64,000 nucleotides of DNA from an uncultured Chloroflexia bacterium (GTDB taxonomy: Bacteria; Chloroflexota; Limnocylindria; Limnocylindrales; CSP1-4). Position 1 is the stretch's first letter. Each line of letters opens with the position of its first letter. The position numbers and the translations under genes are program-made. Below are positions 24,609-39,176 of the stretch, piece after piece. The stretch covers positions 223,475-287,474 of the forward strand of contig CAWGTR010000006.1 in assembly GCA_963825545.1 (NCBI GenBank). Direction: 5' to 3'. The notes beneath the pieces are model-generated. The model saw only the letters and a program-made list of their open reading frames with translations. It did not search any database and had not been told where the DNA came from.

Positions 24609-24620
24609 GGAGACAGTCAG

Positions 24621-25859
24621 GTGGCCAAGACCGGGAAGAACGGAACCAACGGCACGAACGGCGCGAAGCCGGCTGCCGGCGCGGCGCGCCGGACCGACGG
24701 CAAGATCCGGGTCGCGATCGTCGGGGTGGGGAACTGCGCCAGCAGCCTCGTCCAGGGTCGTTACTACTACGAGAACGCGAAGAAGGAGGACTTCGTCCCC
24801 GGCCTAATGCACGTCGAGCTCGGCGGGTACCACGTTCGCGACATCGAGTTCGTCGCCGCGTTCGACATCGACAAGAACAAGGTCGGCAAGGACCTCTCCG
24901 AGGCGATCTACCAGAAGCCGAACAACACCTACGTCTTCCAGCAGGTCCCGCACATCGGGGTGACCGTCGACCGCGGAATGACCCACGACGGGCTCGGCAA
25001 GTACCTCAGCCAGATCATCGAAAAGGCGCCCGGCCCGACGGCCGACGTCGTCGGGATCCTCCGCGAGCGCGAGGTCGACGTGATGGTCTCCTACCTGCCG
25101 GTCGGCAGCGAGGAGGCCACGAAGTGGTACGTCGAGCAGGCGCTCAAGGCGGGCGTCGGGTTCGTGAACGCCATCCCGGTGTTCATCGGCCGCGAGCCGT
25201 ACTGGCAGCGGCGCTTCGCCGAGGAGGGCCTGCCGGTCATCGGTGACGACATCAAGAGCCAGGTCGGGGCCACGATCAGCCACCGCGTCCTGACCCGCCT
25301 GTTCATGGACCGCGGCGTCCGCCTCGACCGGACCTACCAGCTCAACTTCGGCGGCAACACCGACTTCCTCAACATGCTCGAGCGCGAGCGTCTCGAGTCG
25401 AAGAAGATCTCGAAGACGAACGCGGTCACGAGCATGCTCGACTACGAGGTCGACCCCGATGACGTCCACGTCGGCCCGAGCGACCACGTTCCGTGGCTGC
25501 TCGACCGGAAGTGGTGCTACATCCGGATGGAGGGCACGACCTACGGCGACGTGCCGCTCAACGCCGAGCTCAAGCTCGAGGTCTGGGACAGCCCGAACAG
25601 CGCCGGCGTGATCACCGACGCGATCCGCTGCCTCAAGCTCGGCCTCGACCGCGGGCTCACCGGAACCCTGGTCGCGCCGTCGAGCTACTTCATGAAGAGC
25701 CCGCCAATCCAGATCCACGACGACATCGCGTTCAACCGGGTCGAGGCGTTCATCCGGGGCGAGGACAACGAGACCCTCGTCGGCACGGAGGCTCCGCAGA
25801 AGCGGACGCTCAGGCGGCTGGCCGGGCCGAAGGCGAAGGTGGCGGCCGGAGCCCGGTGA
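24621..25859 (+). CDS. ino1: myo-inositol-1-phosphate synthase
   Basis: [53 protein letters not shown] and [11 protein letters not shown]. Confidence 0.95.
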
Positions 25860-26872
25860 CCTCGGTCCCGGATCGGCCCGTGGCCGGCGGGCCGATCGAC
25901 CCTGGACCGCGACCCGCACTCGAGAGGCCCAACCGGCGCGTCGCGAGCGCGCCACGGGTCGTCGAGAAGACGGCGGTGCTCGCCTACCGGCTGGCCGAAT
26001 GGCTCGTCGCCCGGCTGCCGACCGGGCCGACGGCGCGTGTCGTCGGCTGGTTCGTCCAGGGGTCCTACCTGCTCTGGCCGACGAAGCGGCGCTGGTCCAA
26101 CCGCAACTTCGGCCATGTCCTCGGGCTGCCGCCCGACGACCCGGCGGTGCGGCGGATGGCGCTCCGGGCGTACCGGAGCTACGCCCGCTACCTCGTCGAG
26201 CTCCTTCAGCTCCCGTCGCTGAGCCAGGAGCGGGCGATCGGCCTGATCGACCAGGCCGCCGTCGACGACGTCGAGCGGCTGTGGCGGGGCTCGAACGGGC
26301 TGATCTTCGCGGCCTGCCACGTCGGGAACAACGAGATCATCGCCGCGGCCATCGGGTGGCGCGGCTGGCCGTTGGCGGGGCTGGCCGACGACTCGACGTT
26401 CCCCGAGCTGTTCGAGCATCTCCGCGCGGAGCGAGCCCGCTGGAACGCCCGGGTGATCCCGTGGCGCAACCTGCGCGAGGTCTACGCGGTCCTCCGACGG
26501 CGCGAGATGCTCGCCCTGCTGGTCGACTGGGGCTATCGGGCGGATGACGTCCCGGTCCGCCTGTTCGGCGCCTGGACGACCCTGCCGGCCGGACCGGCGA
26601 CGCTCGCCGGAAAGACCGGAGCGCTCATCGTGCCGGTCGCCATCCGGCGGCTGCCCGACGGCCGGTTCCACGCCTCGACCGAGCCACCGATCCAGGTGGC
26701 GTCGACCGAGCCGGCCGAGGTCCTGCGCGCTACGCAGGCCATCGCCGACGCGATCGAAGGGGTGATCGCGGCCGCTCCCGAGCAGTGGTACAGCTTCAAG
26801 CCGATATGGCCCGAGACCGCGGCCGAGGCCGCCGAGCTGGAGCGGCGTGCCGCCCGGATGGCCGCCGGATGA
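25856..26872 (+). CDS. LpxL/HtrB-PatA-type lysophospholipid/glycolipid acyltransferase (paralog 1)
   Basis: GTGA overlap with ino1. AACHVGNNE (HX4-acidic motif) and the C-terminal [12 protein letters not shown] typical of the family. Confidence 0.7.
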
Positions 26873-27870
26873 GCCGCGCAACGGCCGCCCCGGCCGCCGG
26901 GATCCCGGCGAGCGAGCGATCCACCGCCCGGCAGCGGATCGTCGCCGACGCCGTGACCGCCGCGTCGTGGCTCGCCTGCCATCTGCCCGAGCGACCGCTC
27001 GTCGGGCTGGCCGAGCTCGTCGGCGAGCTGTGGTACCTGGTCGACCGGCGGCGTGCCGAGCAGGCTCGCCGCAACCTGCGCCGGGTGACCGGCTGGATGG
27101 TGGCCGAGGGTCTTGCCGACGCACGGATCCGCGCGGCGTCCCGCGGCGGGCGGGCGCTCGACCGGTTGGTCCGGGCGGCGTTCCGCCACTACGCCACCTA
27201 TTACCTCGACGTTGCCCGGGCACCCGCGCTGACGCCCGCCTATCTCGCCGAGCGGCTGACGATCGAGACGCCGGAAGCGTTCGACGACGCCTTTGGCGAG
27301 CCCGGGCCGCGGATCTTCCTCGGGCTCCACTTCGGAGCGATCGAGCTGCAGGCGTACGTCGCCGCCGTCCACGCCGCGCGGCCGCTGACCACGCCGATGG
27401 AGACGGTCGACGATCCGGCTCTCCAGCGCTACTTCGTCCGGACGCGCGGCGCGCTCGGGATCCGGATCGTCGGGCTGCGCGAGGCGCGCCGCGAGGTCCT
27501 CGCCGCCCTCGGCCGTGGCGAGCCCGTCGGGATCGTCGGGGACCGCGACCTGACCGGCGGCGGAATGCCGGTCACGCTGTTCGGATCGCGCGCGTCGCTG
27601 CCCCTCGGCCCGGCGCTCGTGGCCATCGAGAGCGGCGCGCCGACGTTCGCGGTGACGGCGCGCCGGCTGCCGGGCGGGCGCTACGTCGGCCGGCTCGACC
27701 GGCTGGCCATCCCGGCCGCCGGCTCGCGGCGCGAGCGCGTGTCGGCCTTCCTCGACGAGGAGGCGCGCTGGTTCGAGCGCCAGGTCAGCGCCGCCCCGGA
27801 GCAGTGGTGGGCGGTCTTCTTCCCGATCTGGCCCGATCTCGAGGCCGCTCCGGCCGGGATCCGGCGATGA
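26869..27870 (+). CDS. LpxL/HtrB-PatA-type acyltransferase (paralog 2)
   Basis: ATGA overlap. RRAEQARRNLRRV, GLHFGAIEL, GIVGDRDL and APEQWWAVFFPIW. Confidence 0.7.
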   Translation: MSRATAAPAAGIPASERSTARQRIVADAVTAASWLACHLPERPLVGLAELVGELWYLVDRRRAEQARRNLRRVTGWMVAEGLADARIRAASRGGRALDRLVRAAFRHYATYYLDVARAPALTPAYLAERLTIETPEAFDDAFGEPGPRIFLGLHFGAIELQAYVAAVHAARPLTTPMETVDDPALQRYFVRTRGALGIRIVGLREARREVLAALGRGEPVGIVGDRDLTGGGMPVTLFGSRASLPLGPALVAIESGAPTFAVTARRLPGGRYVGRLDRLAIPAAGSRRERVSAFLDEEARWFERQVSAAPEQWWAVFFPIWPDLEAAPAGIRR

Positions 27871-28688
27871 CCGATCGGCTGGGTCGCGCCGACCTGCACA
27901 TCCACACGCTGGCATCGGACGGGATCTCCGGGATCGACGAGATCCTCGACCGGGTCGAGACGGTCGGCGAGCTCGACGTGATCGCCATTACCGACCACGA
28001 GCGGATCGACGCGGCGCTGGCCGCCCGGACGATCGCCCGCGATCGCGGCGCCCCGTTCGAGGTCGTCATCGGCGAGGAGGTCACCACCCGCGGCGGCCAT
28101 CTCCTCGCCCTGTTCATCGAGTCCCCGGTCCGCTCGCTGCGCTCGCTGCGCTCGACGATCGCCGAGATCCACGACCAGGGCGGCCTGGCCATCCCGGCGC
28201 ACCCGCTCGTTCCGTACCCGCTGTGCGCCCAGGGGTTCGTGCTGCGGCGGCTGCTCGGCGAGTCGGACCCGCGCTACCACCCGGACGGGCTCGAGACATT
28301 CAACCCGACGACCCTCGGTCGGCCGCTCCACGCCCGGGTCGTGCGCTTCGCCGTCGACCACGACCTGGCCCAGATCGGCGACAGCGATGCCCATGCGGCG
28401 GTGTCGATCGGTACGGGCTGGACGACCTTCCCGGGCCGTGGCGCCGACGATCTCCGGGCCGCGATCCTCGCGCGCGAGACGCACGCGCACGGGAGCTTCC
28501 ACGGCACCGGCAACCAGGTGTCGACGTTCGGGCGGCAGCTCCGCAAGTACGGCCGCGACGTGCGCGACGAGGTGCGCGGCCGGGTCCGTCGGGACGGCAC
28601 CGGGCGGGACCACGGCTACCCGGGCGGCCGGGCCCGACCGCCACGCTACGAGCCGGGAGCCGTGGCCGGTCCGGAGCACGGACGATGA
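27867..28688 (+). CDS. PHP-domain metal-dependent phosphoesterase
   Basis: ATGA overlap. ADLHIHTLASDG, AITDHERID, IGEEVTTRGGHLLALF, AIPAHP and GDSDAH are PHP His/Asp metal ligand motifs. Confidence 0.8.
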   Translation: MTDRLGRADLHIHTLASDGISGIDEILDRVETVGELDVIAITDHERIDAALAARTIARDRGAPFEVVIGEEVTTRGGHLLALFIESPVRSLRSLRSTIAEIHDQGGLAIPAHPLVPYPLCAQGFVLRRLLGESDPRYHPDGLETFNPTTLGRPLHARVVRFAVDHDLAQIGDSDAHAAVSIGTGWTTFPGRGADDLRAAILARETHAHGSFHGTGNQVSTFGRQLRKYGRDVRDEVRGRVRRDGTGRDHGYPGGRARPPRYEPGAVAGPEHGR

Positions 28689-29917
28689 AGATCGGGCTGG
28701 TGACGCCGTACGTGTACCCGGTTCCGGGCGGCGTCAACGAACACGTCCGCTACCTCTACGAGAACCTGCGCCTGCACGGACACGACGTCCGGATCATCAG
28801 CAGCAGTCACGGCCTCCAGCGCGCCTCCGAGGGCGACATCATCCGGCTCGGGAAGGGCTTCAGCGTCCCGATGAACGGCTCCGTCGGAACGGTTACCCTC
28901 TCGCCGCGCTACGTGGGCCTGGTCGACGAGATGCTCGACCGCGAGCGGTTCGACGTCCTGCACTTCCACGAGCCGTTCGTGCCGTTCCTGTCGCTCATCC
29001 TGCTGCGCCGGTCGCGGAGCGTGAACGTCGCGACGTTCCACGCCTACGCCGGGTTCTCGCTGTCCTACGAGTTCGGGGCGCGCGTCATGCAGGGCCACGC
29101 CCGGCTGCTCCATGGCCGAATCGCCGTCAGCGCAGCGGCGCGGCACTTCATCGACCGCTACTTCCCGGGCGACTACAAGATCATCCCCAACGGCGTCGAC
29201 GTCGACCGCTACCGGAAGGCGGTCCCGATCGCGCGCTGGCAGGACGGCACGCGCAACCTCCTGTTCGTCAGCCGCCTCGAGCCGCGCAAGGGAGTGCTCG
29301 TCCTGCTCAAGGCGTACCGGATCCTGCGCAAGACCGGTTGCCCATGCCGGCTCCTCGTCGTCGGTTCCGGACCGCAGGAGCGCGAGGCTCGGCGCTACGT
29401 GATGACCCGCCGGCTGGCCGGGGTGGAGTTCCTCGGCCGGGTGAGCGACGCGGAGAAGGCCCAGCTGTTCCGCACGGCCGACGTGTTCGTGGCCCCGGCG
29501 ACCGGTCGCGAGTCGTTCGGGATCGTGCTCCTCGAGGCGATGGCCGCCGGCGCGCCGATCGTGGCCTCGGACATCCACGGCTACAAGGGCGTCGTCCGGC
29601 GCGGCGAGCAGGGCCTGCTCGTGCCACCGGGCGAGCCGCGCGAGCTCGCCGCGGCGATCGGGCGGCTCGTCGTCGACGACAGCCTGCGCGCTGACATGAG
29701 CGCGAGCGGGATGGCCCGGGCCGAGACGTTCAGCTGGGAGCGGATCACCGAGCGTGTCGAGAGCTACTACGGCTTCGTGATCCGCCGGCTCGCGGCCCAG
29801 GGCGCCTTGCCGGCGGACTTCCGGGCCGAGATCCCGCCCTCGCCGCGCGTCCAGCCCGCGATCGCAGACTCCGACGGAACGGTCGAGGAACCCTCGGTCA
29901 TCGCCCGCCGCGGCTAA
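28685..29917 (+). CDS. pimA: GT4 (GT-B) glycosyltransferase, PimA-like
   Basis: ATGA overlap. MKIGLVTPYVYPVPGGVNEHV, FVSRLEPRKG and ESFGIVLLEAMAAGAPIVASD (E-x7-E). The gene symbol is tentative and rests on operon context. Confidence 0.7.
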   Translation: MKIGLVTPYVYPVPGGVNEHVRYLYENLRLHGHDVRIISSSHGLQRASEGDIIRLGKGFSVPMNGSVGTVTLSPRYVGLVDEMLDRERFDVLHFHEPFVPFLSLILLRRSRSVNVATFHAYAGFSLSYEFGARVMQGHARLLHGRIAVSAAARHFIDRYFPGDYKIIPNGVDVDRYRKAVPIARWQDGTRNLLFVSRLEPRKGVLVLLKAYRILRKTGCPCRLLVVGSGPQEREARRYVMTRRLAGVEFLGRVSDAEKAQLFRTADVFVAPATGRESFGIVLLEAMAAGAPIVASDIHGYKGVVRRGEQGLLVPPGEPRELAAAIGRLVVDDSLRADMSASGMARAETFSWERITERVESYYGFVIRRLAAQGALPADFRAEIPPSPRVQPAIADSDGTVEEPSVIARRG

Positions 29918-29951: not shown

Positions 29952-32900
29952 TCAGCCGGCCTGGCCGGTTGTCACGATCGAGCCAGGGTCGCGGCGCGCC
30001 GCCTCGCGCTCGGCCGCGGCGATCCGCCAGGCCCACGCGGCGTAGCCCACGATCACGCTCGTAACGAGCAGCGCGGCCAGGAGCAGGAGCACGTCGGCGA
30101 GGTGAGCCGTGATCGAGAACGGAACGACCTTGTCGGTGTTGACGGGGAACTGGAACGCGTACAGGTAGGTCGGCAGGAGGCCCTGGTACGCGTTCACGAT
30201 CGCGGCCGGCAGCGGGAGCCCCGAGATGTTCGGATACCACGTGACGAACCAGACGACGCAGGCGAGCATGATCCCTGCCGCGAACCGGCGGCTGTCGCGC
30301 GCGGTAGCCACGACCCAGGCGATCGGCGACAGGGCGATGAGGACGACGAGGGCGATCGGCTCGATTCGGAAGCCGTCCTGGCTCAGGATCGCGGTGTCCG
30401 GCAGGAACCCGCCAACGAGGATGAGCCCGATCGCCCCGCCGACGGCGGTCGCGGCGATCTGGAGGAACCGCCGATTCGCCTCCTCGGCCGATCGGTTGCC
30501 CGAACCGAGCCGGAGGATCTGGACGACAAGCAGCGCGCCGGCGACGAGCAGGATCGCGGCCAGCCCGGCGGTCCGCCAGGTCAGGACGATCTGCCCCGGG
30601 GCCGTCGCGACGCAGGCCTCCGAGCCCGGGTTGACCGCCGTGACCCGCACGAACGTGCACAGCGGGCCCTTGAACAGCCACATGAGAGCCGGGCCGAGGA
30701 CCGCGATCGCCGCGCTCACCCGGGCCAGCGCCCAGGTCCGTGCCGACGGCCCGTTCCGGAGCTCCGCGACGAAGTAGGCGAGGGCGATCAGCAGGAACGG
30801 CACCGCCGCGTAGTAGTGGTACTGGAAGGTGGCCCGGTCGATCCGCGCCCAGGGCAGCCACTGGAAGGCAAACGCGACGAAGACGAGCCCGAGGGCCAGG
30901 CTCCGGCGCTTGAACGCCTGCCAGGCCACGAACAACATCGCCGGGATCGACAGCCACCAGGCGACGAGGTTCCCCGCGTCGTAGATCGCCGCGGACGTGT
31001 TGGCCGCGAACGAGTCCTGGTAGAACCAGACCGGCTTGAGGTCGAGCGGCCAGGCCCAGTACGGCGACGACGCCGCATGGGTCGCCCGGAGCCCGTTGTG
31101 GTAGTCGTACATCTGGCGGGTCAGCGCGAGCAGCGTCTGGCCCGTGTTGCCGGGCGGCCACGTATCGGTGAGCCGGTTGCCCAGCGCCACCCAGGGCAGG
31201 TATGAGATCACGTAGACGACGATCGGGACCACCGCCAGGCAGATCACGCCCCATACGATCGGGAGGCCGAGGAGCGTCCCTGGTCGGAGCCAGCCCTCGG
31301 GCGGCGGGGACCCGGGCTCGGTGAGCCGGACCGGGTCGTCCGGGTCGGGCGGCAGCGCCAGCGGCCCGAGCCCCCAGATGCCGGCGAATCGCAGGATCGC
31401 CCAGACCACGCCCGAGCCGAGGATGAGCAGGAGCGAGATCACCGTCGGCGTCAGGGCCGCCGGGCCCGCGCCGATCGGCTTCACGGCGATGCCGAGCGGG
31501 ACCGCGATGAGGAACACCAGGATCCCGATCGCAGCCGGACCCACGATCGCGAGACGGGTCTCCTCGGCCGACCAGGCGATCGGACGGAAGACGGTCACGA
31601 GGACGGCCCCGAGCGTCAGGGCGATCATCAGCGCGACGAAGAGGAAGTTGCCGGCGCTCGTCGAGGCGTCCGGGGCGATGTCGATCGCCATGTAGCCTAG
31701 CACGGCCGTCCCGAGCGCCAGCCCGAGGATGAGCAGGATCCGGCCGAGCGCGGAGCGGCCCAGGATGAGCACGACGACGCCGGCCATGGCGTACAGCCCG
31801 ACCCATTTCGAGGCGAGCGCGAACCCAAGCAGCACGCCCACCGCGGGCAGCACGACCCAGAACGCCCACGGCCGTTTCCAGCGTCCGAGCCAGAGCGGTG
31901 CGAACAGGGTGTAGGCGGCCACGATGAAGAGGCCGACGTAGACGTCGTTCATCGCGATCCGGCTCTGCACGAAGAGCATTCCGTCGACCAGGACGAGAAT
32001 GGCGGCGATGACCGCGATCTCGCGACGCCGGAACAGGATCCGCACGAGCAGGAAGATGAGCCCGGCCGTGAGCGCCCCGGCGAGCATTCCCGGCAGGCGC
32101 CAGGCGAACGCGTGGTTGCCTGAGTCGACCGTGGCGAGCATCCCGTCGGCGGACGTGGCCAGGATCGCCTGGCGGTCGCCGCTCGGGTTCTCCGGGTTGG
32201 CGTCGAGCGCCCAGGCCTGCGCGTCGAACGGCAACCGGGCATCCGCATAGACCGCATTGCCGTGCGGCTCGACGACGTAGATCGTGTCGCTCGTCCCGTC
32301 CGGGGTCCGACCCAACACGTGGACCATCTGGGTCGGCTGGTCGTACACGAGGTCCCGGACGTCACCCGGCATCGGGAACGTCGTCGTCAGGTGCGGCCCC
32401 TCCTTGCCGTCGCCCTGCCCGAGCTGGATGACGGCCACGTTCTTGCCTTCGAGGGCCGCGTACAGGGTGGGCTGGTCGATCCCCGTCACGACGGTCAGGC
32501 CGCGGGCGGCGCCGTCGAGCGTCACGGTGTCCACGATCTGGCCCGTGGCCGGCGAGATGAACGTCACGCCGCCCTCGTCCGCGACCGCGATCCGCGGCAG
32601 CGGCGCGACCGTCAGCCCGGTCAGGCGGCCGTCCGAGATCGCGGTCGAGATGTCCTTCTGTTGCTGGTCGTCGGTGAACCCGCCGAGCAGGACCACCGCG
32701 GCCTCCCCCGCCGACGTGGCGGCCGTCAGTCGAGCCTGGTAGTCGGCGGCGTTCCCGCCGGTGATCGTGGCCAGGGCCGCGGACACGGCGGCCGGGTCGG
32801 TGACGGCCGTCGGGTCTGCCGTCAGCCCGTCGCCCAGTCCGCCGTCGGCGAGATCCGAGACGCCGCCGAGCCGCTGCCGGCCCGTCTCGGCGCCCGTGCT

Positions 32901-35396
32901 CGGGTCGACGAGGACGACCTCGCCACCACTCGTGGCGACCGCCATCCCGGAGGCGTCGGTGGTCAGCCCGAGATGCGTCACCGGCGCCTTCACGTCGGCC
33001 AGCGGCGCCGGCCCGTCGACGCTGGTGATCGGCGTTTCGGCGCTGTACCCGCCTGACGCCCGGGCGTCGTCGAGCACCGTCGTGTCGAGCGCGAGCACCT
33101 GGCCGCTGTCCGTGCCGACGAGGACGCGGTGACCGACGGGATCGAGCGTGAGGGCCGACGCCCCCGGCACCGACCAGGTCGTGATCAGGCCGCGGGTCAC
33201 CAGGTCGTAGGCCCGCAGCTCGTCGCCGCCGGCGACGTAGAAGCGGTCCCCGGACGGCGGGGACGGCCGGCTCGAGTCGACCCACTGCGGCTCGACGAGC
33301 ACGTCGCGGACCGTCGTGCCCAGCGAGCGCTGCGCGGTCACCCGGTCGTCCCCGGCGACGATCAGCCCGGCGGCCATCGCGTACTTGGCGATGTGGGGGT
33401 GGGTCCACTCGTAGATGTCGTGTGGCATCCCGTAGCGCCAGTCCTGGAGGAACTCCGTGGCGGTCCGCGCGTGGTAGACCTCGTCGAAGTGCATGCGGTA
33501 CGGCTCCGACAGCCGGAACGTCCGCGATACCAGGGCGACGAGCACGATCACCACGAGCAGCCACAGGTCGAGCCGGTCGAGCCGCCCGCCGCCCTCGCCG
33601 TGGAGTCGACGCGACCGATCGGGCAGGAGGGTCCGGATCCGGGCCAGCCCGAACGGCAGCGGCAGCCAGCCCGGGTCACGCTCGGCCGCGAACGAGGCTT
33701 CGTCCCACGCGATCGCCGGGCCGGCGCTTGGAGGGGCCGCCACCACCCGTCCGGCGACGGCACCGCCGGCCGCGGTCGTGGCCGCCACCGCCTCGCCGGC
33801 GGTCCCGGGGCCGCCCGAAGGGGCGCTCGTGTCGCCGCCGATCCACCCTCCGTCGGTCGCGTCGGCAGCGACGGCGTCCTCGTCCGCCTCCCAGAGCGCG
33901 GCGTCGATCGCCTCGCGATCCAGCCGTCGGAGCGCGGCGGGACGCAGCTCGGTGACCGCGAACACGAAGGCCGCGAAATGGATCGCCGCGACGGTCGCCA
34001 CCCCGACCGGGGATCGGATCGCGTCGGCCATGCCCAGCCAGTCCTTGATCCCGGGGTTCTGGAAGTACGGGATCAGGAGGACCGCGTACAGGTTCGCGAA
34101 GTTGGCCAGCGAGAGCAGGACGTAGGCCACGCGCCAGCGAACCGACGTGGCGGCGAGGATGGCGCCGAGGATGGCGAACGGGAAGAGGTACCGCTCGTGG
34201 ACCCGGGTGGGCACGACGAAGAACGCGATCGCCATCACCGTCAGCGCGACGAGGAGCAGCCGCCGGTCGTCGACGATGGCCCGGATCCGCTCGCCGCCCG
34301 AGCCTTCGTCGATGGTCACGATCGACGGCCGGTCCAGCCAGCCGACGACGAGGCAGACCGCCGCGATGACGATCAGCAGCAGCGCGGTCCCGACGTACAG
34401 CGCAGGGACGCCGGCGATGAGCGTCGCGACCTCGGCGGCGGTCGCCCCGGCGACGTCGCGCAGCCATTGGCCGTTCTCCGCCAACCCGTTGCCGCCGCGG
34501 CTGATCAGCGCCCACGGGTTATAGGCGTTGACGGTGATGTACGGGTAGCCGCCGGCCGTCTTGCCGACCTGCTCGACGAGCCCCACGATCGACAGGCCGA
34601 ACGGGAGGCACAGGAGGACCGCCGTCGCGAGCCCGACGCCGGCGCTCGTGACCAGCCGCAGCGGACCTTCGCCGAAGCGGTCGAGCCACGGCTCGCCGCG
34701 CGGTCCCGGCTGGGCGTCGGCCAGCGGGACGTCCCCTCCGGCTCCCGCCGGCGCAGGCGGCGCGGGCGGTCGCAGGCGATCCCACACGTGGCGCCGCAGC
34801 AGGACGATCGCCAGGATCGGCAGGAGGATCCCGAGCTGCGGCTTGATGACCGCGGCGAGCACGGCGAAGAACGTCGCCCGCTCGGGCCGGCGCCGCCACA
34901 GGTCGCGCAGGCCGAGCAGCAGGAAGATCACCCCGAAGGCGTCGACCTGGCCCCAGATCGCACTGTCGAACCAGGTGACCGGGTTGACGAGCACGAACGC
35001 GGCGCCGAGCAGGGCGGCCCGGCGCGATCCACCGAGCTCGCGGACCAGGGAGTGGACCAGCCATGCGAGGACGACGTCGGCGAGGATCGGGGGCAGCTTG
35101 ATCAGGTCGCCGATGCCCCCGATCGCGTTCCCGACGATCCCCACGAGCCACAGCACGTAGAGGTAGCCGGGCGTGTAGTCGACGAAGAAGCCCCGGTTGT
35201 AGAAGCCCCCCGGACCGTGCGTCGCGAGCTCGTTCGCCCAGGCCTGGAAGGAGCCGCGGTCCGCTCCGAACCCGGAGCCGGGGAGCAGGACGTATGCGAT
35301 GATGAGGCGGAGGGCGAGGCCGACGATCAGGATCGCGATGAGCGCCAGGGCGGCCTCGAACGACCGCCTCGGCGCCGCGGTGCCTCGGTCGGGCAC
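29952..35396 (-). CDS. giant (1814 aa) polytopic membrane protein: N-terminal GT-C module plus a GT39/PMT-like module split by a beta-propeller-like periplasmic insert
   Basis: Module 1: VDYTPGYLYVLW...VHERYLFPF. Module 2: MHFDEVYHARTA...HPHIAKYAMAAGLIVAGDD, then a roughly 420-aa repeat-rich soluble insert (FYVAGGDELRAYDL..., VLVGTDSGQVLALD...), then HAFAWRLPGMLAG...SRIAMNDVY...PYWAWPLDLKPVWFY...QYHYY. GTG start at 35396. Confidence 0.8.
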   Translation of the reverse strand: MPDRGTAAPRRSFEAALALIAILIVGLALRLIIAYVLLPGSGFGADRGSFQAWANELATHGPGGFYNRGFFVDYTPGYLYVLWLVGIVGNAIGGIGDLIKLPPILADVVLAWLVHSLVRELGGSRRAALLGAAFVLVNPVTWFDSAIWGQVDAFGVIFLLLGLRDLWRRRPERATFFAVLAAVIKPQLGILLPILAIVLLRRHVWDRLRPPAPPAPAGAGGDVPLADAQPGPRGEPWLDRFGEGPLRLVTSAGVGLATAVLLCLPFGLSIVGLVEQVGKTAGGYPYITVNAYNPWALISRGGNGLAENGQWLRDVAGATAAEVATLIAGVPALYVGTALLLIVIAAVCLVVGWLDRPSIVTIDEGSGGERIRAIVDDRRLLLVALTVMAIAFFVVPTRVHERYLFPFAILGAILAATSVRWRVAYVLLSLANFANLYAVLLIPYFQNPGIKDWLGMADAIRSPVGVATVAAIHFAAFVFAVTELRPAALRRLDREAIDAALWEADEDAVAADATDGGWIGGDTSAPSGGPGTAGEAVAATTAAGGAVAGRVVAAPPSAGPAIAWDEASFAAERDPGWLPLPFGLARIRTLLPDRSRRLHGEGGGRLDRLDLWLLVVIVLVALVSRTFRLSEPYRMHFDEVYHARTATEFLQDWRYGMPHDIYEWTHPHIAKYAMAAGLIVAGDDRVTAQRSLGTTVRDVLVEPQWVDSSRPSPPSGDRFYVAGGDELRAYDLVTRGLITTWSVPGASALTLDPVGHRVLVGTDSGQVLALDTTVLDDARASGGYSAETPITSVDGPAPLADVKAPVTHLGLTTDASGMAVATSGGEVVLVDPSTGAETGRQRLGGVSDLADGGLGDGLTADPTAVTDPAAVSAALATITGGNAADYQARLTAATSAGEAAVVLLGGFTDDQQQKDISTAISDGRLTGLTVAPLPRIAVADEGGVTFISPATGQIVDTVTLDGAARGLTVVTGIDQPTLYAALEGKNVAVIQLGQGDGKEGPHLTTTFPMPGDVRDLVYDQPTQMVHVLGRTPDGTSDTIYVVEPHGNAVYADARLPFDAQAWALDANPENPSGDRQAILATSADGMLATVDSGNHAFAWRLPGMLAGALTAGLIFLLVRILFRRREIAVIAAILVLVDGMLFVQSRIAMNDVYVGLFIVAAYTLFAPLWLGRWKRPWAFWVVLPAVGVLLGFALASKWVGLYAMAGVVVLILGRSALGRILLILGLALGTAVLGYMAIDIAPDASTSAGNFLFVALMIALTLGAVLVTVFRPIAWSAEETRLAIVGPAAIGILVFLIAVPLGIAVKPIGAGPAALTPTVISLLLILGSGVVWAILRFAGIWGLGPLALPPDPDDPVRLTEPGSPPPEGWLRPGTLLGLPIVWGVICLAVVPIVVYVISYLPWVALGNRLTDTWPPGNTGQTLLALTRQMYDYHNGLRATHAASSPYWAWPLDLKPVWFYQDSFAANTSAAIYDAGNLVAWWLSIPAMLFVAWQAFKRRSLALGLVFVAFAFQWLPWARIDRATFQYHYYAAVPFLLIALAYFVAELRNGPSARTWALARVSAAIAVLGPALMWLFKGPLCTFVRVTAVNPGSEACVATAPGQIVLTWRTAGLAAILLVAGALLVVQILRLGSGNRSAEEANRRFLQIAATAVGGAIGLILVGGFLPDTAILSQDGFRIEPIALVVLIALSPIAWVVATARDSRRFAAGIMLACVVWFVTWYPNISGLPLPAAIVNAYQGLLPTYLYAFQFPVNTDKVVPFSITAHLADVLLLLAALLVTSVIVGYAAWAWRIAAAEREAARRDPGSIVTTGQAG

Positions 35397-35443
35397 GGAT
35401 GTGGGGGAAGCCAGGGAGGTCCGCCTCCTGCACGGGCGCTGAG

Positions 35444-36847
35444 GTGGAGCGGAGTATAGCGCAGGGTCCCGCGACGGACGCCCGAGCGAGCCGCCTCCCC
35501 GACCTCCGATCCGGGACCGCCAGGACGGTCGCGGTCGGCCTCGCGATCACCGCGTTGATGCTCGCGGTGTATGTCGTCAGCAACCCCACCCGGGACAGCT
35601 ACTACAACCATTTCGTGTGGCAGGCCGAGGCGTTCCTCGACGGCCGCGCCACCATCCGCTACCCGGTCGCGGACCAGCCCGGGATCCACGGCGACAACCT
35701 GTTCCAGGACGTCCTCCTTGCGCCGGGGCCGCACGGCGAGCCAACCGGCTACGCGCTGCTGCCGTTCCCGCCCCTGCCGGCTGTGATCCTCATGCCGTTC
35801 GTCGCGATCTGGGGCCTGGCCACGGACGCCCAGCTGATCGCAGCGATCCTCGGCGCGCTGGTCGTTGGCATCGCCTTCTGGGTCCTCGGACGCCTGCCGA
35901 TCGCTCCGCGGGTCCGGGTCGCCAGCACGCTCTTCCTCGGCCTGGGCACCGTCTTCTGGTACACGTCCGAGCTGGGGACGACGTGGTACCTCGCGCACGT
36001 CGTCGCCGTCGGGTTCACCCTTCTCGCGATCGGGGTCGCGTTGCGCGGCGATCCGCTCGCGGCGGCAGGAGAACCCGATCCCGAGCCCGATTCGACCCGC
36101 CGCCGGCTCGTGCTCGACCCGGGTCAGGTGTTCGCCGGGTTCCTGTTCGGGCTCGCCTGCACCGCCCGGCTGACCGTGGTCTTCGGCCTGCCGTTCTTCG
36201 TGTTCGTCGGCGGGGGCGGCGACCGCCTTCGGCGTGGCGTGTCGGCCGTCGTCGGCATGGCTGTCCCGATCGGTGCCCTGATCGCCTACACCTACGCCAC
36301 GACCGGGCAGCTGATGAACCCGGGCTACGACGTGCTGTACCACCTCGAGACGGTCTTCTATCCCCAGCTCGGCTACCACAGCGGCTGGGGAATCGAGGAT
36401 CCACGTTACCTCGCCCAGAACGTGCCGCTCATGCTCGCCGGGCTTCCGTCGATCCTGCCTGCCTGCCCGCCGGATGCCGTGCGCGGCTGGTTCGATCCGG
36501 CCTGCCCCGTGATCGCGCCGCGCGACGTGGGGATGGGGCTGTTCCTGACCAGCCCGGCCTGGCTGGTGTCGTTCGCGTCGCTGCGCTGGTTCGGCCGGGA
36601 TCGCCTGGTCACCGGGGCGGTCATCGCCGTCGCGCTGATCGCCCTCGTCGACGTGATGCACTTCAGCCAGGGCTGGGTCCAGTTCGGCTACCGGTTCAGC
36701 AACGACTACGCGCCGTTCGCCCTCCTCCTTTTCGCCTTGGCGCTCGAGGCTGGACGCCGGACCCGGCGGCTCGGCTACGTGCTCATCGCGATCTCGATCG
36801 CGATCGTCACCTGGGGCGTGGCCTGGGGCCACCTCTTGGGATGGTGA
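35444..36847 (+). CDS. GT-C-like polytopic membrane protein (ArnT/PMT-like, putative glycosyltransferase)
   Basis: About 12 hydrophobic segments, an N-terminal periplasmic-loop segment YYNHFVWQAEAFLDGR, and operon context. The start is uncertain: the ORF opens at ATG 35399, GTG 35444 is listed, and the first TM begins around 35520. Confidence 0.6.
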   Translation: MERSIAQGPATDARASRLPDLRSGTARTVAVGLAITALMLAVYVVSNPTRDSYYNHFVWQAEAFLDGRATIRYPVADQPGIHGDNLFQDVLLAPGPHGEPTGYALLPFPPLPAVILMPFVAIWGLATDAQLIAAILGALVVGIAFWVLGRLPIAPRVRVASTLFLGLGTVFWYTSELGTTWYLAHVVAVGFTLLAIGVALRGDPLAAAGEPDPEPDSTRRRLVLDPGQVFAGFLFGLACTARLTVVFGLPFFVFVGGGGDRLRRGVSAVVGMAVPIGALIAYTYATTGQLMNPGYDVLYHLETVFYPQLGYHSGWGIEDPRYLAQNVPLMLAGLPSILPACPPDAVRGWFDPACPVIAPRDVGMGLFLTSPAWLVSFASLRWFGRDRLVTGAVIAVALIALVDVMHFSQGWVQFGYRFSNDYAPFALLLFALALEAGRRTRRLGYVLIAISIAIVTWGVAWGHLLGW

Positions 36848-38403
36848 TCGCCGCGCGCCCCGCAGGGCCGACGACCGGGCTCGTCCTCGCCGCGCTGGGG
36901 TCGGCCGTCTTCGCCCTGGCGATCGCCGTCCCGACGCTCCTGCCCGGCGTGTCGTTCTGGGACACGGCCGAGCTGCAGACGGTCGGGCCGCTGCTCGGGA
37001 CGGCGCACCCGACCGGCTTCCCGACCTGGGTGATCCTCGGCTGGCTCGCATCGATCGTGTTCCAGCCGCTCGGCGACCCGGCGTTCCGGATGAACCTGCT
37101 CAACGCCGTCTGCCTGGCCGTGGCCGCCGCCCTGATGGCCGTGCTCGTCCATCGGCTGACCGCGCGCGCCTGGCTCGCCTTCGCCTTCGGCGTGGTCCTG
37201 GCGGCGACACCGATCGCCTGGTCGATCGGGACCCATGCCGACGTTCACGGGCTTCATCTCGTCCTGTGCGCCCTCCTGCTCATCCTGCTCGTCGACTGGG
37301 AACGGCTCGAGCGGTCGGGGGCTGCCGGCGCGGACCGCCGCCTGGTGGCCGCGACGATCGTCTTCGCCCTCGCGCTCGGGAACCACAGCCTCGTGCTCCT
37401 GTTCGTGCCCGGGATCGTCCTGTTCGTGTTCGCGGTCGCGCCGTCGATCCTCGGCCGTCGCCGGCTGGTCGGGGCCTGCGTGGCGGCCCTTGCCGGGACG
37501 CTCGTCGTCGTGTACCTCGAGCTGCCGGTCCGCGCCGGGCTCATGCCGGCGCCGCTGGTGTACGGCCATCCCGACACCTGGGCGGGGTTCTGGTACATCG
37601 TCCTGGCAGAGCAGTTCCAGGGCAGCCTCATCGACCCGCTGGGCGAGCTCCCCCAGAAGGCGGCGACGCTCGTTCGCTTCAGCGGCGACCAGCTCGGACC
37701 ACTCGCCTTGCTGGTCCCGCTCGGGTTCGCGGCGACGATCGTCCGCCGGCCGCGCTACGCGGTGCTGACCGGCCTGACTCTGGCGATCACCTGCTTCTTC
37801 GCGGTGTCCTACGACAACGCCCAGATCGACCGCTACTACCTCGTACCGGCGCTCATCGCGCTGAGCTGGGTGGCGGTCCTCTTGGCGACGGTCGTCGACT
37901 GGCTCGAGCGGCGGATCGTGCCGGGCGGGCTCGATCGCCATGGGGACCGGGCGCCGCGGCCGGTCGTCGGGCTCCTCCTCGCCGCGCTCGTCGTCGTTCC
38001 GACAGCGGTGCTCCTGCCGGCGCGCTGGCAGGCAGTCGACCAGAGCGCGAACCGATCGGGCGACGCATGGCTCGACGCGCTGCTCGACGAGCGGGTCGCC
38101 GGCCCCGGGGCGGTGATCGTCTCGTGGTGGAGCTACTCGACCCCGCTATGGTACGCGCAGCACATCGACGACCGGCGACCGGACATCCGGGTCGTCGACG
38201 ACCGGACCCGCCTCGACGAGAACCTCGGAGCCATCAGCGACGTGATCGACAGCAACCTCGGACGCCACCCCGTCCTCGTCATCCAGGTCGACCCGGCTAT
38301 CGTCGGCTCGCTCATGGAGCGCTACCGGCTGACGCCCCTGCCCGTTCCGGGCTCGCAGGTCGTGTACCGGGTCGACGGGGTCCTCGCCGCGGCCAATCGA
38401 TGA
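36841..38403 (+). CDS. DUF2723/TMEM260-like GT-C membrane protein
   Basis: The start overlaps the upstream stop. GVSFWDTAELQTVGPLLGTAHPTGFPTWVILGW is the family signature. TM-rich N-terminal two thirds and a soluble C-terminal domain. Confidence 0.7.
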   Translation: MVIAARPAGPTTGLVLAALGSAVFALAIAVPTLLPGVSFWDTAELQTVGPLLGTAHPTGFPTWVILGWLASIVFQPLGDPAFRMNLLNAVCLAVAAALMAVLVHRLTARAWLAFAFGVVLAATPIAWSIGTHADVHGLHLVLCALLLILLVDWERLERSGAAGADRRLVAATIVFALALGNHSLVLLFVPGIVLFVFAVAPSILGRRRLVGACVAALAGTLVVVYLELPVRAGLMPAPLVYGHPDTWAGFWYIVLAEQFQGSLIDPLGELPQKAATLVRFSGDQLGPLALLVPLGFAATIVRRPRYAVLTGLTLAITCFFAVSYDNAQIDRYYLVPALIALSWVAVLLATVVDWLERRIVPGGLDRHGDRAPRPVVGLLLAALVVVPTAVLLPARWQAVDQSANRSGDAWLDALLDERVAGPGAVIVSWWSYSTPLWYAQHIDDRRPDIRVVDDRTRLDENLGAISDVIDSNLGRHPVLVIQVDPAIVGSLMERYRLTPLPVPGSQVVYRVDGVLAAANR

Positions 38404-39176
38404 CCGACCCGGCGGCGAACCCGGATCGCCTCGCGGAGCTGTCGTACTTCTTCCCGGCCCACAACGAGGAGGCCAACCTCGAGCCGCTCGTGACGGAGGC
38501 GCTGGCGACCCTGCCCGAGCTCGCCGGCCGTTTCGAGGTCGTGATCGTCGACGACGGCTCGCGCGATGCCACTGCCGAGATCGCCGATCGACTTGCCGCC
38601 GCCCATCCTGACCTCGTCCGTGTGGTCCACCACGAGACGAACCGCGGCTACGGAGCCGCGTTGCGGTCCGGCTTTCGGGCCGCGAGATTCGGCTACGTCG
38701 CCTTCACCGACGGCGACCGGCAGTTCAAGATCGCCGACCTGGCCCGGCTGACGGCCCGGATGGGCGCCCCCGACCGACCCGACGTCGTGATCGGTTTCCG
38801 CATCCGACGGGCGGACCCGATCATCCGGACGATCTACGCCCGGTCCTACCGGCTGGCGAACCGGGTCTTCTTCGGGCTGCGGGCGACCGACGTCGACTGC
38901 GCCTGCAAGCTCTACCGGCGCGAGGCGCTCGACGGGATCCGGGTCGAGTCCGGCGGCGCCTTCCTGTCCGCCGAGCTGCTGATCAAGCTCCGGGCACGCG
39001 GCCGATCCGTCGTCGAGGTCGGCGTCCCGCACTACCCACGCACGGCCGGCTCACCGACCGGGGCCCGGCCGCAGGTGATCGTCCGGGCCGTTCGCGACTT
39101 CTGGATGCTCCGGCTGCGGATGTGGGCGTCGCGGGACCGGGCGCTGTCGCGCGGGGCATCGATCCTGGGCGACTGA
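38400..39176 (+). CDS. GT2 polyprenyl-phosphate sugar synthase (DPM1/Ppm1/GtrB-like)
   Basis: ATGA overlap. LSYFFPAHNEEANL, VVIVDDGSRDAT, NRGYGAALRSGF and FTDGDRQF (DxD-type). Confidence 0.8.
   Translation: MTDPAANPDRLAELSYFFPAHNEEANLEPLVTEALATLPELAGRFEVVIVDDGSRDATAEIADRLAAAHPDLVRVVHHETNRGYGAALRSGFRAARFGYVAFTDGDRQFKIADLARLTARMGAPDRPDVVIGFRIRRADPIIRTIYARSYRLANRVFFGLRATDVDCACKLYRREALDGIRVESGGAFLSAELLIKLRARGRSVVEVGVPHYPRTAGSPTGARPQVIVRAVRDFWMLRLRMWASRDRALSRGASILGD

Follow-up and report, generated by a model that had tools for sequence, protein, structure and literature searches.

The window, a stretch of 64,000 nucleotides from an uncultured Chloroflexia bacterium, carries at 29952..35396 on the minus strand a single frame of 1,814 codons, with a GTG start and a TGA/TAA stop within these coordinates. 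An earlier, sequence-only reading had placed an ORF here, without giving its strand, and had described it as a double GT-C glycosyltransferase containing a beta-propeller; that observation is correct. The ORF joins an ALG6/PimE-like GT-C module, a protein O-mannosyltransferase (PMT, family GT39) module and a seven-bladed propeller in one chain. In the computed structure, a disordered linker lies between the two GT-C modules and the propeller sits within the first loop of the second. The N-terminal module is predicted to have both termini inside, the linker to be cytoplasmic (by positive-inside reasoning) and the catalytic loops of both modules to face outward. All of the motifs that had been quoted were found: DYTPGYLY at residues 73-80, HERYLFPF at 400-407, HPHIAKYAMAAGLIVAGDD at 666-684 and HAFAWRLPGMLAG at 1095-1107. 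The window protein is 100% identical to protein cluster P0001.

On the plus strand beyond the start of the ORF lie a 482-aa polytopic membrane protein with no family match (35399..36847; kept in 55 of 64 syntenic loci), a TMEM260-type GT-C (36841..38403; 59/64) and a GT2 polyprenyl-phosphate-sugar synthase (38400..39176; 63/64). The TMEM260-type neighbour, which is divergent from the ORF, is a homologue of a protein O-mannosyltransferase (Pfam PF11028, E 3e-19; human TMEM260 structure 9rql, E 1.9e-14). The GT2 protein, likewise divergently encoded, matches Pfam Glycos_transf_2 and is the likely donor supplier for the fused protein. Among PDB structures it matches ArnC and DPMS best, and GtrB (sll0501) is one of the weaker hits; as a guide to the sugar, ArnC, DPMS and GtrB match about equally. 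Downstream of the ORF and convergent with it, 24609..29917 on the plus strand holds myo-inositol-1-phosphate synthase (Ino1), two PIM-acyltransferase-like genes, a PHP phosphoesterase and a GT4. The GT4, PHP and both acyltransferase genes were present in 49 of 49 loci and Ino1 in 46. This tight synteny with inositol and PIM-type genes (49/49 loci) suits a glycolipid acceptor equally well.

The two GT-C modules and the propeller

The N-terminal module (residues 1-515; 33852..35396, minus strand) has a predicted GT-C fold of the ALG6/PimE type, with about 12 TM helices and structural similarity to solved ALG6/PimE-type members. The proposal that this part is a GT-C module, which a contrary structure prediction could have overturned, is thus borne out by the predicted fold. 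At the sequence level, however, the module is remote from PimE (GT87, PDB 9dm5) and yeast ALG6 (GT57, PDB 6sni), neither of which it matches, and it differs from both in being fused to a PMT. It scores below every Pfam gathering threshold: GT87 (PF09594) reaches 22.0 bits against a cut-off of 25 (E 1.6e-4), some of its stand-alone relatives scoring 25-30 bits; Alg6_Alg8 (PF03155) gave no match to the window protein and only sub-threshold ones to its relatives. A profile of 19 sequences found no match among PDB sequences even at E 10. A GT-C_B label was considered and dropped, as ALG6 and PimE are grouped with ArnT and PglB in GT-C_A (PMC12041525).

The putative catalytic base of the module is D46 (codon 35259..35261, minus strand), which does not vary among 48 fused and 18 stand-alone homologues. 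In the model it starts helix 44-60 right after TM1, at the tip of JM1, the first juxtamembrane helix; in PimE, D58 occupies the apex of JM1 (PMC12041525). All 48 fused proteins compared share D46, D73, K100, D107, K185, Q187, H400, E401 and R402, and every one of these but D73 is likewise constant in an alignment of 19 sequences, 18 of them stand-alone homologues; the invariant positions form part of a wider set comprising D73-Y74, K185-P-Q187, N293, W295 and R398-x-H400-E401-R402-Y403. D46, K185 and H400 are plausibly placed in the model for a catalytic Asp with Lys/His phosphate ligands, and D46, K185 and H400/E401/R402 would parallel PimE D58, K195 and H321/H322 (PMC12041525), an equivalence drawn from position. 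Because the JM1-tip Asp, the Lys and the H-E-R motif are retained, the N-module is probably a second active transferase that shares the donor pool of the GT39 module.

The linker that follows (residues 516-607; 33576..33851, minus strand) is rich in Ala, Gly and Pro and poorly conserved, with pLDDT below 50 over residues 527-591.

The GT39/PMT module spans residues 608-1575. Its first part (608-684; 33345..33575, minus strand) comprises TM1 and the start of the outer loop EL1, with the motif HFDEVYH (D638-E639), constant in 48 of 48 homologues, and an HPH-x-x-K-Y helix; the TM core (1094-1575; 30672..32117, minus strand) runs from TM2 onward through EL2 with D1151, an EL4 lacking MIR, EL5 with R1521 and F1524, and the PMT_4TMC bundle. 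Its assignment as PMT-like stands, both Pfam matches being above cut-off: PMT (PF02366) over residues 1095-1211, entering the profile at position 81 (E 2.9e-14, 53.7 bits against 22.7), and PMT_4TMC (PF16192) over 1421-1549 (E 1.9e-13, 50.8 bits against 32.4). The PDB sequence matches of the module are yeast Pmt4 and a second PMT. HFDEVYH, which holds the Asp-Glu motif of the first extracytoplasmic loop, aligns with the Pmt4 'FDEVHF' motif, D1151 with the Asp of Pmt4 'LLD', and R1521-x-x-F1524 with the 'R-x-x-F' of 9i5k. The catalytic residues D638/E639, D1151 and R1521/F1524 are the same in all 48 homologues compared, and the acceptor-side residues of the M. tuberculosis enzyme (MtPMT), in which the roles of D74, D176, R441 and Y444 were tested by mutagenesis (PMC12331936), are all conserved in the fused family. 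The NCBIfam Pmt equivalog (NF058602) was not reached (54.2 bits against a cut-off of 800), and, judged by sequence, the module is a divergent member of GT39 and not an orthologue of actinobacterial Pmt. No Pfam match to a MIR domain was found, EL4 being short as in bacterial PMTs.

Alignment with yeast Pmt4 (9e61) pairs residues 608-652 with Pmt4 51-94 and 1098-1207 with Pmt4 140-251, so that the intervening stretch is 445 residues long here, compared with 45 in Pmt4. Here, in the first extracytoplasmic loop, about 410 residues separate the HPH-x-x-K helix from TM2, confirming the proposed insertion of a propeller into the catalytic-side loop. The insert (residues ~685-1093; 32118..33344, minus strand) is predicted with high confidence to be all-beta, closes into a toroid of seven blades and matches seven-bladed propellers. 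Since D638 belongs to the same loop, some 45 residues before the start of the insert, the propeller is likely to lie close to the GT39 active site; a role in substrate recognition, as the sequence-only reading worded it, is something we infer. Searches with a single sequence and with a 13-sequence profile returned only fragments of the same family; as these rely on shared five-residue words, distant homology of the Rv3212 or BamB type could escape them. Matches to Pfam PQQ_2 (E 0.015) and NCBIfam BamB (E 8e-4) were sub-threshold. Escherichia coli YncE (PDB 3vgz), a periplasmic seven-bladed propeller, is 12% identical to the insert, but is a free protein rather than part of a transferase. Within the propeller is a helical sub-insert (residues ~868-921; 32634..32795, minus strand; helices at model positions 269-297 and 311-322). 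A compact homologue of 1524 aa (P0233) gives no local alignment across residues 837-912, which cover it, suggesting that the sub-insert is reduced or absent there.

The four-TM bundle is followed by further helices, as had been noticed. This C-terminal extension (residues 1576-1814; 29952..30671, minus strand) has about 5-6 extra TM helices and no family match; a Cys pair (C1580/C1595) and a YPN...QFP loop (1721-1750) are conserved in it.

Distribution and intactness of the fusion

Relatives of the protein are encoded in at least 540 species-level genomes, the best 80 all being MAGs of Chloroflexota/Limnocylindria, a lineage known from MAGs alone. The architecture had been called unusual. This is so relative to characterised PMTs, but within Limnocylindria (at least 540 genomes) it is the norm.

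A chain of this kind could in theory be an artefact, two or three ordinary genes joined by misassembly or by a sequencing frameshift, and this had been raised at the outset as a matter to be checked. The ORF is indeed interrupted at nine of the 80 related loci, and some database entries of the family are fragments of 250-750 aa. However, at 54 of the 80 loci, from independent MAGs, the ORF runs unbroken for 1,690 codons or more; at another 17 nothing but a contig end cuts it short, and eight of the nine interruptions come from long-read 'MFD' MAGs in which homology runs on past the break. On one long-read contig with a split ORF (L082), the adjacent genes are broken up as well. All of the 120 best protein clusters have the full-length architecture, with 49-73% identity over 1615-1862 aa, and GC3 is uniformly 0.94 across the entire stop-to-stop frame, as in the other genes of the window. 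The fusion therefore stands, orthologues being intact apart from those in error-prone long-read MAGs, and the artefact explanation, now vanishingly improbable, is effectively refuted. At one long-read locus (L025) stops fall within the linker and homology resumes in frame, which could reflect either sequencing error or a rare natural split. Candidate propeller-less fusions among matches of 700-1,400 aa were set aside, most being truncated by contig ends or compact forms of the same architecture; one protein of 892 aa (P0261) passes directly from the N-module to a PMT_2 domain and may be truncated.

Relation to known O-mannosylation systems

The closest comparison is with the mycobacterial Pmt holo-complex, proposed in a July 2026 preprint that is without peer review (bioRxiv 10.64898/2026.07.15.738315). 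As proposed, it consists of Pmt (Rv1002c/ML0192c, GT39), the GT87-like Rv0051/ML2687c, the periplasmic beta-propeller Rv3212/ML0810c and two copies of Rv1209/ML1065; homologues of Rv0051, Rv3212 and Rv1209 were recovered in pull-downs of M. smegmatis Pmt, and AF3 puts the propeller above the Pmt active site (bioRxiv 10.64898/2026.07.15.738315). Three of the four kinds of subunit are common to this complex and the ORF: a GT39 enzyme with a DE motif, a GT-C of GT87/ALG6 type and a large extracytoplasmic propeller that goes with the outer face of the GT39 enzyme. In mycobacteria these are separate subunits, whereas here all three lie within one ORF and the propeller is spliced into EL1 instead of being separately anchored in the membrane. 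Because they are covalently linked, the three parts presumably function as one unit. The propeller has seven blades here against the eight reported for ML0810c, with no sequence relationship detected by searches that returned only its own family, and the likeness between the two systems may have arisen by convergence, not by common descent. The N-module keeps catalytic-type residues that are reportedly missing from the GT87-like partner in mycobacteria, the extra C-terminal TM helices are particular to the ORF, and no equivalent of the DivIVA-like subunit was identified here.

Translational fusions of GT39 and GT87 have been noted in Paenibacillus (UniProt V9WAU2; bioRxiv 10.64898/2026.07.15.738315). 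Compared by description, V9WAU2 resembles the ORF in combining GT39 and a GT87-family GT-C in one chain, but the preprint mentions no propeller insert. The eukaryotic Pmt1-Pmt2 and POMT1-POMT2 enzymes (PDB 6P2R; 9e61 for Pmt4) have in common with the ORF the GT39 core and catalytic DE motif, two GT-C units side by side and a soluble beta-rich domain on the acceptor side. Their partner is a second GT39 in a separate chain, however, rather than an ALG6/PimE-like module in the same chain, and a MIR beta-trefoil in EL4 serves as their soluble domain instead of a propeller in EL1. TMTC1-4 and TMEM260, too, are GT-C O-mannosyltransferases with a repeat-type soluble domain on the acceptor side. In these the domain is formed of TPRs, a C-terminal alpha-solenoid as opposed to a propeller inserted in EL1.

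Function of the single chain

A literature search found nothing on this protein or on glycosylation in Limnocylindria. On balance, and with modest confidence, we infer that the product of the ORF is a glycosylation machine of the cell envelope in Limnocylindria, built as one chain and dependent on polyprenyl-phosphate sugars, and the best reading, by analogy, would make it a single-chain counterpart of the mycobacterial Pmt holo-complex. The neighbouring GT2 enzyme would charge polyprenyl phosphate with a hexose, probably mannose, and the lipid-linked sugar would then be flipped outward, where the GT39 module would use it to O-glycosylate Ser/Thr of exported proteins. D638 would act as base, helped by D1151 and R1521/F1524, in the manner of D74, D176, R441 and Y444 of the M. 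tuberculosis enzyme. Transfer of mannose from polyprenyl-P-mannose to Ser/Thr has indirect support in the conserved adjacent polyprenyl-P-sugar synthase. The propeller, on the outer loop that bears the catalytic Asp, may cap or gate the acceptor site, as MIR domains do in eukaryotic PMTs and as proposed for the separate mycobacterial Rv3212/ML0810c. The ALG6/PimE-like N-module would stand in for the GT87-like Rv0051/ML2687c, and its most economical role would be to extend the first sugar, much as the GT87 enzyme PimE lengthens the O-mannose chains of mycobacterial mannoproteins (PMC12757957).

Two other readings give one or both modules a different task, and both appear unlikely. The GT39 module alone might be catalytic, with the N-module a non-enzymatic GT-C-like partner and the fusion serving to enforce a heterodimer. 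Such a partner has been proposed for Rv0051/ML2687c, which reportedly has no catalytic residues although Pmt depends on it to function, and yeast Pmt2 in Pmt1-Pmt2 is described likewise (bioRxiv 10.64898/2026.07.15.738315); the sub-threshold Pfam scores of the N-module and its lack of a sequence-level match to any solved GT-C would fit. Against this, the strict conservation of nine of its residues in the fused proteins, eight of them also in the stand-alone homologues, is unexpected in a pure scaffold. The very existence of stand-alone homologues, one of them directly behind a GT2 gene of its own, points to an autonomous enzyme family. Alternatively, one or both modules could extend a phosphatidylinositol-anchored glycolipid (PIM/LM-like) on the membrane's outer face, with the N-module acting like PimE/Mpt, the GT39-like module repurposed and the propeller binding the growing glycan. 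The immediately downstream Ino1, acyltransferase and GT4 genes favour this, both acyltransferases having the NCBIfam PIM acyltransferase as top match (124 and 119 bits), and the GT2 donor synthase would suit such a pathway equally. Those scores, however, fall below the curated cut-off of 209, the GT4 is generic, and no CDP-alcohol phosphatidyltransferase was found in the cluster. The PIM-type genes are convergent on the opposite strand and therefore not co-transcribed with the ORF. In addition, GT39 enzymes are described in the literature consulted only as protein O-mannosyltransferases, the MtPMT acceptor-side residues are all conserved, and the divergent neighbour is itself of the TMEM260 protein O-mannosyltransferase type.

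If the ORF is the counterpart of the mycobacterial holo-complex, it bears on how bacterial PMTs select their substrates, which has been listed as an open question, these enzymes having been portrayed as bare membrane proteins that carry no soluble domain on the acceptor side (PMC12331936). Because the three parts are welded together in one gene across hundreds of genomes, the family lends the mycobacterial proposal of GT39, GT87-like protein and propeller independent support of the 'Rosetta-stone' kind from a distant phylum, and the retained residues of the N-module suggest that the partner GT-C can be catalytically active. A bolder proposal, which we regard as speculative and rather doubtful, is that this triad, whether of independent origin or common ancestry in Chloroflexota and Actinobacteria, is an obligate unit of bacterial O-mannosylation; in Limnocylindria it would form a chain with two active sites, in which the PMT initiates, the N-module extends and the EL1 propeller holds the acceptor. 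If true, the chain would be the first example of a GT-C that unites initiation, elongation and a substrate clamp in a single polypeptide, and cryo-EM would have a whole bacterial PMT machine as a ready target. The locus suggests that an abundant uncultured lineage of soil and freshwater has a glycosylation system that is so far uncharacterised and possibly linked to inositol lipids, and the fused chain offers structural biologists a complex of fixed stoichiometry.

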